Positions 850 to 61,053 of a stretch of DNA of 64,000 bases are shown piece after piece (position 1 is the first letter of the stretch; every line of letters begins with the position of its first letter). The stretch spans positions 4,526,001 through 4,590,000 of the forward strand of contig OX597839.1 of the NCBI GenBank assembly GCA_951406725.2. The letters are read 5' to 3'. A program made the translations under genes and the position numbers. The notes under the pieces were generated by a model. It searched no databases. It was not told where the DNA came from and saw only the letters and a list, made by a program, of their open reading frames with translations. Origin of the DNA: Octopus vulgaris. Its lineage: Eukaryota.

Positions 850-1547
850 GCATGTATGTATTAGGTGTGTGTGTATACGCCTGTTTCTGAAGGCCCGTAT
901 GAATATATACATATACGAAAGTCTAGTTCTGTATATACACATATATTAACTCTGACTCCATCTTTTCCCTCTTCCTCTCTCTCTCTCTCCCTCTGTCTCC
1001 CAAAATGTGCACTTCCTCTTGTTTCTATATCCCATGAACCTTTATTTTTTTCATATAAATTCTGCTTTTTTTTCTCCCTCAATTTATAAATTAATGTCTT
1101 CTTAAAAATAACGTAGAATTTAACTTTAATTAAAATTGTTTATATTCCCGACGGCATGAATTCTTTTGGTGCTTGAGAGCCGCTTTTAATGCATTCATGG
1201 TTGCGCATGCGTGCATATGTAGTTTCAAATACATACAAACACACTGTGCGATTAGAAGCACATGATTATAGGGAAAATTGTATCGATATGTATACATATA
1301 TATATATATATATATAGTTTTGAATATATGTTATATATCTGATGTGTGTGTCTCACTGTCTCCCCCTCTCTCTCACTTTATATTTATATATGTGTGTGTG
1401 TGTATGTTAGTGAGTGTGTGTGCGTGTTTGTGTGCATGTGTAGAGCATATTTTTATCTTCTATTTATTGCTTCTTTCAATCATTAGACGGCGGCCGTGCT
1501 GGGGCACCACCTTGGAGAATTGTAGTCGAACGAATCGACCTCAGTTG

Positions 1548-1654
1548 TAGCCAGCGAGGCGGCGTCATTTGAAGGCTAAAGCAATGCGAAGCGCATCGTG
1601 ACCAGCGATATGTAACAACATCTGATAGCCTTGTCGGTCACGGTGGTCACGGTG
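1548..1654 (+). mobile_element. 3' fragment of SINE family A tail type 1
   Basis: GGCGTCATTTGAAGGCTAAAGCAATGCGAAGCGCATC...TCACGGTGA matches the tail of 15251-15564. Confidence 0.75.
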
Positions 1655-1744
1655 ATATATATATATTATGTGTGTGTCTGTGTGTGTATACATAAACAAA
1701 GCAGTGACACCGAAAAAACCCAGATGTTATGTAAGGAACTTCAT

Positions 1745-1800
1745 TTGCTTACAATTGTTTCTGCTATAGCAGGATAATATCTTATAGCTTCATCAGAGGC
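1745..1800 (-). ncRNA. Decayed type I hammerhead motif (Penelope-type)
   Basis: Minus strand reads CTGATGA-A-GCTATA..TATAGC-A-GAAA-CAATTG-TA, with palindromic stem III. Stem I is only partly paired. Confidence 0.45.
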
Positions 1801-1832
1801 TTGACATTATTAGGGAGAGTTGCATTTTCACA

Positions 1833-1868
<36 letters not shown>

Positions 1869-1879
1869 TATATTCTTCC

Positions 1880-2246
1880 ACCGTCTAGGCTTAAAAAAGC
1901 CCTCAATGTTGGTTTCCTTGTCCTGTTTTTATTCTTTATGTGTACTATATTTTTATTTGTATTGCTTTTACGTCCTGTTCTTGTCACTTTTTTTCTTCTT
2001 TTACCCCTCTGCAAAAGAATTTTATTTAATTCATTTTGCAGGAAGGTCTACTTCGGCCGGATCGTGTTCTGCCCTTACCTTCGAAACACGCATTGAGTCG
2101 AACCAGGGGCAGCTGATGAAGGGGAATATTCCTTGTATTGTTTGTCTTGTACTCTGTTGTTTCGTTGTTAAAAAAAGTCCGTTTCTTTGTTTGTTTTTAT
2201 GTTTTCGTTTCTCGTTGTGTTTTACGTTTATCTGTGGTGCCCTGTA

Positions 2247-2311
<65 letters not shown>

Positions 2312-2382
2312 ATATACATATAGATGTAGGTATGTACATATATGTATGTATGCATATGTTTTATTTGTTAAATTGTTATTAT
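1880..2382 (+). mobile_element. Non-autonomous repeat carrying the permuted hammerhead motif (family P, copy 1)
   Basis: Colinear with 35845-36302 over its whole length (TTTTACCCCTC.GCAAAA, TTTTATTTAATT, GTTTTCGTTTCTC, GGTG.CCT.TAC) and flanked by (TA)n. Confidence 0.8.
2063..2124 (+). ncRNA. Putative permuted (pseudoknotted) hammerhead ribozyme
   Basis: CGTGT-T | CTGCCCTT-A-CCTTC-GAAA-CACG-14 nt-AGGGGCAG-CTGATGA-A-GGGG. Stems I (8 bp) and III (5 bp) pair in hammerhead register around an intact core. Confidence 0.7.
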
Positions 2383-2401
2383 ATATATATATATATATAT
2401 G

Positions 2402-2760
2402 TAAGTTCACCAAAATTTAGATTCATATGAATATGGTACTTAAGGTAAAGATACCAGAATTTGGTATGGTATTATCCATATAAATCAAATGTAGTGATTA
2501 TAATCAAAATAAGCAACAAGGATATCCAAGGTAGAGTAGTACAATCGTTTCATGCTACTTCATTTCATTAAGCACTGTAAGTATTACATCAGTTTTAAAA
2601 TGTCGAGAACTCGTCATCCACATATAGAATTTTAAAAATTAACTAGACAATGTTCGTTTTGATACTTATATTTGCCAACATTACAAAGAGGATAGATATA
2701 TAGACAGAGAGGTTAATTTCATCATTAAGAACATGGTAGTAGAAGGTCTTTCTCCATGGG
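2402..2760. mobile_element. Penelope-derived non-autonomous repeat family F with decayed type I hammerhead (minus strand, ~2532-2620)
   Basis: Homologous to 55096-55425 and 27857-28078. Minus strand reads ATGACGA..GAAACGATTGTA. Confidence 0.65.
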
Positions 2761-2771
2761 TAGATTTTTTA

Positions 2772-2850
<79 letters not shown>

Positions 2851-2882
2851 TTTATTTTAAGCAGAAGAAAATTCAACAAAAT

Positions 2883-2920
2883 CTGTTACTCTGAGTTTCT
2901 CGTTGCCGTTCATCAGACAG
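2883..2920 (-). ncRNA. Minimal type I hammerhead ribozyme (Penelope-type)
   Basis: Minus strand reads CTGT-CTGATGA-A-CG-GCAA-CG-A-GAAA-CTCAGAG-TA-ACAG: 4 bp stem I, quasi-palindromic stem III, GUA site. Confidence 0.75.
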
Positions 2921-2938
2921 TTTTTATGTGTTTACTCC

Positions 2939-2980
<42 letters not shown>

Positions 2981-3465
2981 GCTTAATAGTTAGGATGTTG
3001 CTCTAGTGGTCGTGATTTCAATTCCTAGACCAGGTGATATGTTGTGATCTTGGGTAGAAACATTTCGTCTACCTGACCGTGCACCTGGTCAGGTGTTGTC
3101 GTTTTGATGGAGAGAGTGAATTAGTGTATGGCACGAACATTTGATCATATAAACAAATCATTCGTGCAGGTCGTTGAACAAAAGCTGAACGCTCATACAT
3201 TGTCTTCGACGGTAGAGCCCATTATACACACACGCACAGACACACACACACGCGCACACACAGACACACACACACTCACACACAATATAATTTATACATT
3301 TATATAACTGAAATGTTTTGTACACACTTTACCTTAAGACAGAATATCTATTCTATTGTTTAATTTCTAGAAACGTGCACGGTATATACACATATACATA
3401 CATGCTTATACATATATATATCTATATATATATATGTATTTTATATTTCTCTCTATATATATGTG

Positions 3466-3535
<70 letters not shown>

Positions 3536-3599
3536 CTGATATATATATATAGATATATGTATATATATAAACTTATCTAGATACATACTTATATACCTG

Positions 3600-3689
<90 letters not shown>

Positions 3690-4693
3690 AGGGTTTGTGT
3701 CGAATTAAATCATGTTTGTGTGTCACTAAGGTAACCAGATTGGAATTTCGGAATCCTTGAATCACAAATTTTCTTAATACATTTGCCGTTGGGGTTTTTA
3801 CGCGTGCATGTGAAATATATCTTTTGTTTGAAATTGTAAATTTTAACACATTTTCAAAATAAAGTATTCACACGCACACACATATATGCACACACATATA
3901 CTCACACGCATATGCGTATATATATATATACTCACAAACATATGCATCGAATGCATGTGTGTTTGTATGCGAGCGAATGTATATGTATGTAGAAATAGAT
4001 ATGTATGTAGAAATAGATAATGTACTGAAATAGATAATGTTGTGTCACACGCACTCTTCGTCACACATGCGGCGAAGAATACATACATATTACAGTTATA
4101 CATTCAGGTGTATACACATACATTCTTTCAAACAAAGAGTATATACACTCTTATGTGTACTAATTACTTTATATACGCGTATATGTGTGTGTGCGTTGCG
4201 TACGTTTTTGCGTATGTCTGTCTACGTTACTGTTCCATATGTATTATGTTGTAGATGTATCCTCGTTCATCAACAATTTGGGATAAAACGGTACACTTAA
4301 CTGCGAACTATGTTAAATTTATCACGAATTGATCTGTCATAACACTGTTCAGCAATGAATGTAGATTCTGCTAATTATATTTTTCAAATATTTTTCTTTA
4401 TTATTTACTGATCGTATGTCATTAAGTGAAGGTGCGTGGCTTAGTGGTTAGGGAATAGGGCTCCCATTTGCAAGGTTGTGAGTTCGATTCCTGGCGTTGT
4501 GCTGTGTCCTTGAACAAAATACTTTATTTCACGTTTCTCCACTCAGCTGGCAAAAAGAAAATGAGTATTTAAAAACATAAGAGGCATCCATCATAGGACT
4601 CCTTGCACGCTAGAGAGAACATTTAAATTCCAAACCACTATTAGGGATAAAACTTCGAAGGGAATGAAAAATAAAAACATTAACCATCTAACT

Positions 4694-6899: not shown

Positions 6900-7316
6900 A
6901 AGGCGGCGAGCTGGCAGAAACGTTAGCACGCCGGGCGAAATGAGTAGCCGTATTTCGTCTGTTGTTACGTTCCGAGTTCAAATTCCGCCGAGGTCGACTT
7001 TGCCGTTCATCCTTTCGGGGTCGATAAACTAAGTACCAGTTACGCACTGGGGTCGATGTAATCGACTTAATCCGTTTGTCTGTCCTTGTTTGTCTCCTCT
7101 GTGTTTAGCCCCTTGTGGGTAGTAAAGAAATAGGTATTTCGTCTGCCGCTACATTCTGAGTTCAAATTCCGCCGAGGTCGACTTTTCCTTTTATCCTTTC
7201 GGGGCCGGTAAAATAAGAACCAGTTGAATACTGGGGTCGATATAATCGACTTAATCCGTTTGTCTGTCCTTGTTTGTCCCCTCTGTGTTTAGACCCTTGT
7301 GGGTAGTAAAGAAATA
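6900..7316 (+). mobile_element. SINE family C, head plus two tandem body units, 16 bp TSD
   Basis: tRNA-like head AGGCGGCGAGCTGGCAGAAACGTTAGC..GAGTTCAAATTCC. The ~185 bp body is repeated twice. TSD TATATTAACCCCAGTA lies at 6884-6899 and 7317-7332. Confidence 0.85.
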
Positions 7317-10859: not shown

Positions 10860-11820
10860 AGGCTTTAGTCTTGGGACAAGCGAAAAGCGTCAAAGGGCAC
10901 TTGACTTTCGAAATGTTGTCAATCTCTCATAACTTTCTACTTGTTAGACTCAACAGTCTGCGAAAATTCCACATTGGCGTTCGAAAGAACGCCAATGTTA
11001 TTATATGATTGTGGCAGGAGAAAGAGACTGCACTCTGCAGGTAACTCTGGGCTATTGACAAAAATCAACTGGTTAGTCTGTTCTGGAGGACTTTTCAACC
11101 GGACCCTGCAGATAACTTTCATGAATTCCTCTGCTGCATGTACAACTAGGATGATCTGCGGGGCATTATTAATTCGAAATAAAGTTTACAGGCAAACAAC
11201 TACCTATTTCTTTACTACCCACAAGGGGTTACACACAGAAGGGACAAACGAGGACAGACAAAGGGGTTAAGTCGATTACATCGACCCCAGTGCGTAACTG
11301 GTACTTAATTTATCGACGCCGAAAGGATGAACTGCAAAGTCGACCTCGGCGGAATTTGAACCCACAACGTAACGGCAGACGAAATACCTATTTCTTTATT
11401 ACCCACAAGGAGCTAAATATAGAGGGGACAACCAAGGACAGACAAACGGATTAAGTCGATTATATCGACCCCAGTGCGTAACTGGTACTTAATTTATCGA
11501 CGCCGAAAGGATGAACTGCAAAGTCGACCTCGGCGGAATTCGAACGTGAATACAAACGAAATACCGCTAAGCATTTCGCCCGGCGTGCTAACGTTTCTGC
11601 CAGCTTGCCGCCTACCATTTCCTGAGCCAGTTCATGATGCGCTCGTCCAGTCGGAGTATGGAAGACTTGTGATGCTATGCTTCCACACGTGGAGCGGATC
11701 CAGTTATTAACCGAGCTCACTGTAAAATCATCTCGCCGCCATCAACAACCTGAGAAGGGCAAACATTTTTTATATGTCTGCTTCATATGGCGAAAGAAGG
11801 TGTCTAGTGAGTAACATTGA
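10860..11820 (+). pseudogene. Old CR1/L2-like LINE reverse transcriptase remnant, interrupted by SINE C
   Basis: Fragments ISHNFLLVRLNSL (like VSH..LL.KL..LG), ALVQSEYG and VERIQ (like ALVRPHLEY..LERVQ). Confidence 0.45.
11205..11613 (-). mobile_element. SINE family C dimer
   Basis: Reverse complement of the 6900-7316 structure. Confidence 0.85.
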
Positions 11821-23924: not shown

Positions 23925-24454
23925 TATATATAAATATGTATATATGCATGTATGTATATATATATATATATATACATATGTGGCAGGGCGTGGCTTAGTA
24001 GTTAGAGGTGTTGCGCTGAGGATTGTAAGAATACGGTTTCCATTCCTCTATCGGGTAATGTGCTGTGTTCTTGGACATGTGTCTTCTATTATAACCTTGG
24101 ACAAGCCAAAGCTTTCTGGGTGGATCTAGTAGATGGAAAGCAAAAGGGCCGATAGAATAAGTACTTGGCCTACAAAGAATAAGCCGTGGGATCGATTTCT
24201 TCGACTAAAAACCATTTAAGACGGTGCTCTAGCATGGCTGTAGTCAAATGACTGAGACATGTAAAGGAAAGAAAAATATTTGTTTATTGTTTTCACTTCT
24301 TTGTAATATCGAAATAAGATATAAGTCGATTCCATCGATCCCGGGCTCAGCTGTTTTATAGGCCTCAAAATGACGACCTCAGCGGAAATTGAACTCAGGT
24401 CGTGAAGGTGGTCAAAATGTCGCTAATCATTTCACACAGCGTGCTAACGATACT

Positions 24455-24839
24455 TATTTCTTTACTACCCACAAGGGGCTAAACACAGAGAGGACAAACA
24501 AGGACAGACAAACGGATTAAGTCGATTATATCGACCCCAGTGCGTAACTGGTACTTACTTTATCGACCCCGAAAGGATGAAAGGCAAAGTCGACCTCGGC
24601 GGAATTTGAACTCAGAACGTAGTGGCAGACGAAATACCTATTTCTTTACTACCCACAAGGGGCTAAACATAGAGGGGACAAACAAGGACAGACAAACGGA
24701 TTAAGTCGATTATATCGACCCCAGTGCGTAACTGATACTTAATTTATCGACCCCGAAAGGATGAAAGGCAAAGTCGACCTCGGCGGAATTTGAACTCTGA
24801 ACGTAGCGGCAGACGAAATACTGCTAAGCATTTCGCCCG
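24455..24839 (-). mobile_element. SINE family C dimer inserted in an older family C copy, 16 bp TSD
   Basis: GCGTGCTAACGATACT at 24439-24454 and 24840-24855; the flanks are a degenerate family C head and body. Confidence 0.85.
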
Positions 24840-34679: not shown

Positions 34680-34915
34680 CATGAAATATGAAAACAAATG
34701 AGTTGAATACGCAAACAACGGGAGAAAGAAATGGAAAACAGGACAAGTAAAATAAGGAACGACCCTTCATCAGTTGTCGGCTGTCTATCTACTCCTCATT
34801 TCGAGCATTGAACGACAATATGAGTCTTCGAAGACAGTGGTTCCCATAAGTACCAAAATAAAATTTGGGATTTATGGAGGATCAAAAGTTGGGAACAAAA
34901 ACAGGATAGTGGAGA
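34680..34915 (-). mobile_element. Diverged member of repeat family P (copy 3)
   Basis: Minus strand CTATCCTGTTTTTGTTCCCAAC..CCTCC..CAAATTTTATTT and CCTTATTTTACTTGTCCTGT align with 35930-35990 and 36092-36112. Confidence 0.6.
34762..34824 (-). ncRNA. Putative permuted hammerhead ribozyme (intact core)
   Basis: Minus strand reads CTCAT-A | TTGTCG-TTCAAT-GCTC-GAAA-TGAG-15 nt-CGACAA-CTGATGA-A-GGGT. Confidence 0.72.
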
Positions 34916-35248: not shown

Positions 35249-35844
35249 ACACAAACATATATATATATATATAACGGGAAGGTTTACGAAAATAAACAAA
35301 AGACGAAGGCAGGTGGAGTACAAACAAACAAATGTATTAGTATGGCGCTCAGGAATAGAAATAGAACAAGTCTTTTAAGTTTCGAGCTTACGCTCTTCGA
35401 CAGAAAGATACACAGAAAAAAAAACAAGGAGAGAAATATATATATATATTCTCCAGGATGACCGCAGTCAAATGACTGAAACAATTGGAAAAATGAAAGA
35501 ATATGTATGCGTGTGCCATTCTGTCTGTCCCCTCATCAACGTTTGACAATAGGTGTTGGTGTCTTTACATCCTCGTAACCTAGTGGTTCGGCAAAAGACA
35601 CCGAGAGAATAAGTACTAGCCTTAAAATGAAGTTCAGGAGTCGATTTGCTCGACTAAAACCCTTTAAGGTGGTGCTCCAGTGGCGCTCCAGCACGGCCGC
35701 AATCAAATTACCGAAAAAGGTATAAAAGAATCAAGAATGAAGATTCATATAAATATACTCACGTACACAAATGAATATGTATAAATATTCACACACCGAT
35801 TCCTATATCGATAGCGTTCGTAAAAAAAAAAAAAAAAAATTATC

Positions 35845-36302
35845 TCGTTTGGCTTAACAGCCCTTCTTGTTTGTGTTACTATCATTCTCCGTGTCCTGTC
35901 CTTTACTGTTTATATTTTGTACTGTCGTTACTGTCCTGTTTTTGTTACCATTTTTACCCCTCCGCAAAAAAATTTCAAATTTTATTTAATTTGATTTTCA
36001 CGGGAAGGAAATTTTCATTGAAGTCATGTATCGCCTTGACCTTCGAAACGTGGAGTAGATGAACCTAAGGCGACTGAATAAGGGGAATTTTCCTTGTTTT
36101 GTATGTCCTGTACTCTATTTATTCGTTGTTTAAAAATATGTCCATTTCCTTGGTTTTGTGTTTATGTTTTCGTTTCTCATTGTGTTCGACGATTTTTTGG
36201 TGTCCTATACGCATATATATGCATGTATATATACATGTAGAGGTAGGTAGTACATATATGTATGTATATATACATATGTTTTATTTATTTATTAATTTAT
36301 TA
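35845..36302 (+). mobile_element. Repeat family P, copy 2
   Basis: Colinear with 1880-2382. Confidence 0.8.
36024..36085 (+). ncRNA. Permuted hammerhead motif with G8->U core mutation
   Basis: TCATGT-A | TCGCCTTG-A-CCTTC-GAAA-CGTGG..TAAGGCGA-CTGAATA-A-GGGG. Confidence 0.6.
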
Positions 36303-36630
36303 TATATACACACAAGCAGACACAAACACGTATGTATATAAAAATAGATCAGACAGATTACAGACGTATATATAAAAAAATGCACACAATATAAAAGATT
36401 AAAGACCTAATTTATAATTGAGTTTATATATTAAAAAAATAAAATAAAACTCAAACCATCTAGTTTTAGAACCGGATATAATAAAACTGAAATAACCAGA
36501 TGAATCGAGAGAATGTAGATATACGTATACAAATGCTAACACACAGATATAACCACACAAATACACATATATAACATATATACTTACAATTGTTACAAAT
36601 ACAAAGAAAGACACGTATGTAACACACACA

Positions 36631-37020: not shown

Positions 37021-37250
37021 TTCTTTACTACCCACAAGGGGCTAAACACAGAGGGGACAAACAAGGACAGACAAACAGATTAAGTCGATTACATCGACCC
37101 CAGTGCGTAACTGGTACTTAATCTATCGACCCCGAAAGGATGAAGGGCAAAGTCGACCTCGGCGGAATTTGAACTCAGAACGTAACGGCAGACGAAATAC
37201 GGCTACGCATTTAGTCCGGCGTGCTAACGTTTCAGCCAGCTCGACGCCTT
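37018..37250 (-). mobile_element. SINE family C monomer
   Basis: Head plus one body unit, between (TA)n tracts. Confidence 0.85.
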
Positions 37251-60019: not shown

Positions 60020-60650
60020 TCAGAGCATGCCAGATCTCAACAGATCTCGTGACTTGACAATCTTCAGGCAATGCCCACATGGCATAACAATGGGACGATA
60101 GGATGAGAGAAAATACTATTAAAGACGAGAAAGAAGCAGATATGAAAGGTAGAAGGTTGAAAAATCAGAAAACGAAAGAGAAAACAGAAAGAAGCAATGG
60201 TTAAGGGGAGCATTAGAATTATTTGCCCTTTGACAAGGCTCAAAAGATAGTGGCTTAGCATATGTGGTACAGCAGTTGAATTCGGAGAATTTGGCACTTA
60301 TCCATATGCTTGCAATCGCTGAAAATTTCGAATCTAGAATTCAGCAGTTTGTTACAGTTCTTAGATCTGGAAAGGATATGAGTTTTTTCAGCTACGCATA
60401 GCTTATATTTTTTTGGTCCGTTAACATATGTTGAGGATCTTTCGACTATTTTCTACTTTATCCTAGGTGGTGTGGTTTTCGACTTGAAACACCATACGTG
60501 GCTAACCAACTTAGCAGCTATTCTTTTGTCCAAGACTCGGAAGGAAAATATGTGATTAGCACTGCGATTTTTGAATTGACCTTCACATAGTGAATATAGC
60601 TCTTCTTATCGGTTGTGTTATGATCTTTGGCGTTATACAGCGTTCTTTTT
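60020..60650 (-). pseudogene. Penelope-like element 3' end: GIY-YIG remnant (60285-60650) followed by a 3' region with a decayed hammerhead (~60026-60075)
   Basis: Minus-strand translation gives LYNAK..KKSYI/LCEGQFKNRSANHIFSF..KLVSHVWCFK..IK*KIVERSSTY..KLCVAEKTHIL..LLNSRFEIFSDCKH. Downstream lies CTGAAGA..GAGATCT..AGATC. Confidence 0.8.
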
Positions 60651-60983: not shown

Positions 60984-61053
60984 GCCAAGATAAAACTCTG
61001 AGTTTCGGATGCCGAGGTGGAGATCCACAACACCATCTCTTCGGTTATCTGGC
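60984..61053 (-). ncRNA. Type I hammerhead motif with U4->C core (family G)
   Basis: Minus strand reads GCCAGATAA-CCGAAGA-GATG..CATC-C-GAAA-CTCAGAG-TT-TTATCTTGGC. Confidence 0.6.

Follow-up and report, generated by a model that had tools for sequence, protein, structure and literature searches.

Type SGC was described by Eckert et al. (2023; PMC10085705) as a non-circular permutation of the hammerhead ribozyme with two pseudoknots, and natural RNAs of this type are cleaved where predicted. According to that paper, the published set comprises 583 sequences that were not found in the genomes of known organisms, and earlier SGC reports come from metatranscriptomes only. The minimal hammerheads of Penelope elements (min-HHR; Cervera and de la Pena 2014, PMC4209133) are of type I (C-G-S), possess no more than a minimal stem III and are active as dimers; that report had no in vivo evidence for a role of Penelope hammerheads. 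In a lizard Penelope, hammerhead mutants were unimpaired for insertion in vitro, and no RNA-seq reads terminated at the cut (Frangieh 2024; PMC11167929). Non-LTR retrozymes of animals, proposed to derive from Penelope elements, are defined as tandem arrays in which every unit has a type I hammerhead, and type I alone was considered (Li et al. 2026; 10.64898/2026.07.22.740005). In addition, Craig et al. (2021; PMC8557442) labelled eight Naiad families 'HHR_half_core', including Naiad_Ovul and Naiad_Esco; two are cephalopod.

We analyzed a 64,000-nt stretch of the Octopus vulgaris genome (C26:4,526,001-4,590,000, hereafter the window) from a microsatellite-rich assembly of 2.8 Gb. Taken as a whole, the results make it probable that an S-G-C motif sits in a likely non-autonomous Penelope-like retroelement, that its intact copies are able to cut themselves, and that the copy at 36025-36085 is dead through a private G8->U change.

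Predicted type SGC hammerheads in the octopus genome

A structural descriptor returned exactly three motifs in the window (2059-2126+, 34760-34828-, and 36021-36087+), compared with a mean of 0.03 and a maximum of 1 in 60 local shuffles. The Rfam hammerhead families gave no matches within the window at the gathering score, the intact sibling L002 yielded no hammerhead row at E<=1 against Rfam, and ARAGORN returned nothing relevant. From 5' to 3', the blocks follow the order S (site), G (GAAA), and C (CUGANGA), which matches type SGC (Table 1). The first-pass annotation had read the third motif as a permuted hammerhead with covarying stems, and this reading held; the topology (type SGC) and the host element had been left unnamed. 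Its letters and pairings were all reproduced on recomputation: in stem III, CAUGU (36025-29) pairs with ACGUG (36048-52); the triplet GUA is 36028-30; in stem I, UCGCCUUG (36031-38) pairs with UAAGGCGA (36066-73); A36039 is the single base joining block G to stem I; and the core CTGAATA spans 36074-80, with T36079 at core position 8. The three compensated stem I pairs and the change of triplet from GUU to GUA that it had reported relative to copy 1 were both borne out; of the stem III changes, one is a compensated pair and the second is one-sided only.

Table 1. Features of the motif copies and the host insertion in the window
Feature	Position	Strand	Description
Block S	36025..36038	+	Stem III 3' strand, GUA triplet, predicted cut, stem I 3' strand
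Predicted cut, block S	between 36030 and 36031	+	
Block G	36040..36052	+	CCUUC (36040-44, stem II 3' strand), GAAA, stem III 5' strand
Linker, stem III to stem I	36053..36065	+	13 nt; includes the second private change C36064
Block C	36066..36085	+	Stem I 5' strand, core CUGAAUA, extra A36081, stem II 5' strand GGGG
G8->U substitution	36079..36079	+	Private to the 36025-36085 copy
Upstream strand GAAGGAAA	36004..36011	+	Possible partner of CCUUC (36040-44) or of the tail (36089-95); predicted gate
Tail strand UUUCCUU	36089..36095	+	Predicted outer helix with 36005-36011
Copy 1	2059..2126	+	Intact-core SGC motif, GUU, CUGAUGA; subfamily other than that of the 36025-36085 copy
Copy 2	34760..34828	-	Intact-core SGC motif, AUA, CUGAUGA; third subfamily, more distant
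Insertion of non-coding Penelope-like element (likely)	35811..36308	+	5'-truncated; repeat end of ~805-nt unit

Each of the three window copies had more than 1,200 first-look candidates in the genome. The pattern of the two core blocks (G and C) had 8,262 exact genome matches, against 1 in the control, and further copies without G8 (232) or without G10.1 (468) bring the family to ~9,000; G8 was thus kept in 8,262/8,494 copies (97%) and G10.1 in 8,262/8,730 (94.6%). Of the first 100 listed matches, which all lie on C1, 68 kept the site block and 64 fitted with <=2 deviations, the other 4 being left out as degenerate. The family-level core of CUGAnGA, GAAA, and NUH was present, and U16.1-A15.1 was found in 62/64 site-bearing copies. 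In a MAFFT alignment of 56 sequences (55 distinct copies and the 36025-36085 copy), 95.1% of cells paired, compared with 34-57% in slid controls. Two-sided changes numbered 143 versus 51 in shuffled data and affected 4/5 pairs in stem I and 4/5 in stem III, much of this covariation following a limited number of lineage splits. Six stem III types were distinguished (GUG/CAC, GCG/CGC, GUA/UAC, UCA/UGA, AUG/CGU, and ACG/CGU), mostly sorting by clade in a tree of 50 rows built from the flanks only; in the helix scan, stem III did not reach the weighted threshold of 0.85. Young subfamilies, with copies 96-98% identical, retain every pair. Intact copies of the family are likely to cleave themselves just behind the NUH triplet of their RNA.

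The family is assigned to the type SGC hammerheads by its block order, its core, and its covariation, with cleavage as a prediction. It shares with HRIMA-1 and the other SGC variants (PMC10085705) the S-G-C order, the CUGAnGA, GAAA, and NUH core, stems I-III predicted as two pseudoknots, a short stem I-stem II linker, and covariation in the stems. Unlike the sequences of that paper, it comprises ~9,000 genomic copies in an animal retroelement, and its own traits are an additional A preceding G10.1, a stem II rich in G-U pairs, and an upstream helix that covaries. In the published SGC set, a further helix connects stems I and II at their free sides; the alignment helix scan did not find it here, so the family is not a member of the published SGC alignments. 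Its novelty lies in the host, the copy number, and the context, and no report of an SGC ribozyme from an animal genome was found in the open-access text searched. Metagenome loci were also considered as SGC relatives; 3/118 had a loosely fitting site block, which was taken as chance. A type I hammerhead candidate at L177:2597 (+) has GGGGAA after its core, a trait shared with the SGC family, and may be related to the unpermuted ancestor.

The helix scan found one further conserved helix, GAAGG (36004-08) with CCUUC (36040-44), which takes the forms GAGCA/UGCUC and GAACG/CGUUC in other lineages. It was paired in 93.6% of cells with two-sided changes in 3/5 pairs, and an exact 5-bp match was found in 46/60 copies versus 5.9% across families. 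This helix and stem II are mutually exclusive. Stem II was 97.7% paired, a value for which 3/4 pairs were partly set by the search pattern and which faces the competing upstream helix, and it is weak, with two G-U pairs and ~-3 kcal/mol versus ~-6 for the upstream helix. The upstream GAAGG strand, and not the post-core GGGG, might form the catalytic stem II and so give an undescribed four-block permutation, an arrangement we consider very improbable. The upstream helix is all Watson-Crick, exceeds the conventional stem II in stability in nearly every copy, has one of the three top covariation scores and, in L240, tracks a change (GAACG/CGUUC) by which the conventional stem loses its fourth pair. 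However, the pair at 10.1-11.1 would then fail in 9/56 sequences, including a U-C subfamily, the strong retention of the post-core G10.1 is accompanied by no listed subfamily fixed otherwise, the fourth conventional pair covaries too (C-G/G-U), and an extra A together with G10.1-C11.1 is the Penelope norm (PMC4209133). The conventional stem II is the more probable one. Core letters 8-10.2 recur in the strand GAAGG (36004-36008), and the tail sequence CCUUG (36092-36096) is similar to CCUUC-GAAA; these strands may be relics of a C and G block duplicated during rearrangement.

Like many Penelope hammerheads, the motif could instead be active only in trans or as a dimer, or be a relic past selection. 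The weak stem II would fit such a state, as would nested folding that was not unusually stable (z -0.4 to -1.0, by a method that does not extend to pseudoknots), the lack of cleavage of minimal Penelope hammerheads as monomers (PMC4209133), and two subfamilies with palindromes just upstream. We give this scarcely any credence, as ~60 nt suffice for all three stems to form in cis, and the young subfamilies both retain every pair and show the cliff of 5' ends described below; activity in cis is preferred. The palindromes, at approximate positions just upstream of the site block, are GTCTTCGAAGAC at 34826-34837 (-) in copy 2 and CGGCCG at 2054-2059 (+) in copy 1, and they could promote dimers.

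The G8 substitution in the copy at 36025-36085

Among the 29 other top loci of the same subfamily, which came from the best 40 scored of 1,271 candidates with a query that itself carried T, the core was CTGAAGA in 28/29, TTGAAGA in 1/29, and CTGAATA in 0/29, and CTGAAGA was thereby established as the subfamily consensus that the first-pass annotation had proposed to check. A 64-nt contig from run X15, which may come from the source sample, showed no difference from 36034-36097 at a depth of 42, so T36079 cannot be put down to an assembly error. The family is present in contigs from runs that carry the labels of three organisms, with G at 36079 in >99% of depth. Genome-wide, G8U after GGCGA was found in 3 copies whose linkers are all different, which indicates independent hits and no lineage. 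The G8A tandem arrays L527 and L528 were considered as a spreading dead lineage and rejected, because their duplications carry the flanks and spread is therefore not shown. Since G8 is kept in 97% of the family (position 8 is not G in 232/8,494 motif copies) and its T is private, the 36025-36085 copy is not special but an ordinary decayed insertion, in which G8U most likely arose at insertion or later.

The hammerhead core of this copy is not intact, as T at 36079 removes the C3-G8 pair. Substitutions at G8, whatever the base, are generally expected to be strongly inactivating. In the hammerhead core, C3 and G8 form a Watson-Crick pair (PMC3884650), and cleavage by a Penelope-element hammerhead was abolished by G8C or C3G (PMC11167929); a test of G8U itself was not found in the readable papers. 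On the basis of this core pair and of the effects of G8C and C3G, loss of activity in the G8U copy is likely, in support of the earlier judgement that it is probably dead, and if its siblings are active we regard its inactivity as highly probable. Its proposed use as a natural negative control is qualified by the second private change, C36064.

A likely non-autonomous Penelope-like host

The insertion that carries this copy is 95-97% identical to its nearest siblings; its 5' boundary is approximate (35811-35840) and its 3' end runs into (TA)n. Across the element, copies share a 3' end ~270 nt past the cut, into (TA)n, and vary at their 5' ends. Partial tandems of the 805-nt unit occur, with 6 tandem pairs seen, and inverted truncated partners are common, e.g., L004/L008 and L006. 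In a set of 30 loci with the unit junction as anchor, 20 end 31-56 nt beyond the main end (TA run included), 1 ends at 115, 2 end at 216 and 391, and 7 continue into the next unit; the element thus has an optional tail of ~45 nt. Partial tandems or pseudo-LTRs, inverted partners, an optional tail, and a fixed 3' end at AT-rich targets are therefore all present, and pseudo-LTRs, a tail, inversion, and (TA)n are features of Penelope-like elements (PMC8557442, PMC11167929). The host is, from its sequence anatomy, likely a non-coding, non-autonomous Penelope-like element of ~0.8 kb.

The family resembles min-HHR (PMC4209133) in its position within the element repeat, in the G10.1-C11.1 pair and the extra base between 9 and 10.1, the latter a mark of Penelope hammerheads, and in having many subfamilies with compensated changes and mostly truncated solo copies; it differs in being non-circularly permuted and in a stem III of 4-5 bp. 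Like the non-LTR retrozymes (10.64898/2026.07.22.740005), it is non-coding, hammerhead-bearing, and a proposed non-autonomous Penelope derivative. However, it does not consist of tandems with a type I hammerhead per unit: the motif belongs to type SGC, solo copies or partial tandems predominate, and the ends are Penelope-style.

Penelope membership was assigned by anatomy because no linked ORF or parent was found. No linked ORF was found upstream of the 222 copies examined; no repeat shared with an autonomous RT + GIY-YIG element was seen among 16 autonomous loci, a set outside the Naiad clade; and the Hydra-like, Neptune-like, and third RT families carried no SGC motif on the coding strand. 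A GIY-YIG fragment upstream of the L074 copy was rejected as a partner because it continues differently in its own family, marking the adjacency as a chimera. An SGC-like match with a 60-nt linker, antisense in a GIY-YIG coding region, was judged a false positive of the loose descriptor. At L016:997-1065, the unit junction and tail open with a 22-codon ORF (MTERTH...), perhaps a relic of the parent's ORF start, and the first 29 nt of this ORF have 279 exact matches.

Several other repeats and hammerheads were recorded. A type I hammerhead with the variant core CCGAAGA (U4->C) is found at window 60987-61050 (-) and in L121-L134; its host is a young autonomous Hydra-like Penelope repeat, with an ORF containing RWK and DKT and open frames of 600+ aa. 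The same type I motif has the core CTGAAGA in L190. Adjoining the Hydra-like repeat in the window is a decayed Penelope GIY-YIG endonuclease fragment at 60297-60587 (-), 37% identical to the L074 fragment. L209 contains a young Neptune-like ORF of 753 aa at 1299-3557 (+), with hammerheads nearby at 4420 (-) and 6938 (+); the type I candidate of this locus has U-U at 10.1-11.1, and its motif also occurs in L123 and L220. Small deletions or duplications inside the ribozyme were seen at L007:756, L054:2460, and L529, with breakpoints at or near the cut and short microhomology. A 184-nt SINE-like repeat occupies window 6950-7316, 11201-11545, 24450-24821, and 37022-37250, as a tandem dimer thrice.

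5' ends at the predicted cut and their meaning

The 5' ends were called by anchored extension, as BLAST-based end calling is confounded by (TA)n. The predicted cut precedes GAAA by 13-17 nt, according to subfamily. With a 25-nt anchor located 137 nt downstream and independent of the ribozyme (99 of the 100 copies listed), 18/71 ends fell at +1..+15 from the predicted cut, all within +3..+14, versus 0/53 at -1..-15 and none until -41 (p 1.6e-5); the comparison of +1..+15 with +16..+30 gave p 0.009. In this sample, the rate of 5' ends per base climbed from 0.001 to 0.017 toward the cut. A core-anchored sample gave 28/100 ends versus 5/72 across the cut (p 7e-4), and removal of the overlap between the samples left 11/54 versus 0/43 (p 0.001). 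The mode lies at +7/+8, not +1, and the first T/A-rich bases, which are at +7/+8, could anneal to the (TA)n target. Far upstream of the cut, 47/99 (3'-anchored) and 55/100 (core-anchored) copies still extend, and 5/6 tandem pairs read across both sites. The 21 tail-only copies showed no clear peak (1 at +12 and 1 at +23), a comparison of low power. As the 5' ends form a cliff but about half of the copies cross the site, cleavage looks real but partial, or followed by re-ligation.

The cliff suggests cleavage in vivo, although a promoter at the same place would compete with this explanation: the ribozyme fold would then be real, the ends would mark an internal promoter start, and cleavage would be rare or irrelevant to mobility. 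The scatter of ends over +3..+14 and the copies that cross the site would accord with such a start, and Penelope repeats are thought to contain a promoter, while cleavage is dispensable for in vitro insertion (PMC11167929). We nevertheless judge this unlikely. The cliff lies <=3 nt from a site predicted beforehand by structure alone, stem III requires bases upstream of the cut and is preserved by compensation, and the three window subfamilies have no common initiator-like sequence at the site, as judged by eye against the general initiator consensus. Under the favored reading of partial cleavage, transcripts through the repeat would fold the double-pseudoknotted core and be cut part of the time only. 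A Penelope reverse transcriptase acting in trans would start at a nicked (TA)n target, ~270 nt downstream of the cut (~320 nt with the tail). On cut RNA the enzyme would run off a few bases before the new 5' end, leaving the +3 to +14 ends, and on uncut or re-ligated RNA reading would continue, giving long and tandem copies.

The upstream strand, lying on the stem II 3' strand and swappable to the 3' tail, may gate this fold. Its pairing with the tail is stronger in most, not all, subfamilies, and the simplest reading is that the off state would form first and a swap to the tail would then free stem II, by which partial cutting would be explained. The Naiad HHR_half_core families (PMC8557442) resemble the octopus family in having a (TA)n target and a half-core in the 3' UTR; they are autonomous with an ORF and were compared by description only. 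The other Naiad half-core lies 35-50 nt away on either side, a spacing that fits SGC, as the octopus span from GAAA to the end of CUGANGA is 36-37 nt. Motifs of the octopus family had 0 matches in the supplement text of Craig et al., which is without Naiad DNA. An SGC topology may likewise be hidden in the 'ribozyme-less' half-core Naiad elements known from octopus, squid, nematodes, and spiders. Only tentatively, we suggest that the whole constitutes a young germline family of ~9,000 copies, that it is a gated SGC switch with its partial cutting recorded in the 5' ends of its copies, and that the half-core Naiad may share its topology.

On its own, the G8U copy is ordinary, and the family is the finding. 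A non-circular RNA permutation previously known from environmental RNA, for which host and role were lacking, is now placed by its sequence in a chromosome-level animal genome. It occurs there in thousands of copies that include natural variants, point-dead ones such as 36025-36085 among them. By implication, descriptor searches restricted to types I-III would overlook ribozymes that lie in eukaryotic repeats. The 5'-end cliff would be genomic evidence for cut RNA as a real template, and it makes the role of Penelope hammerheads directly testable.
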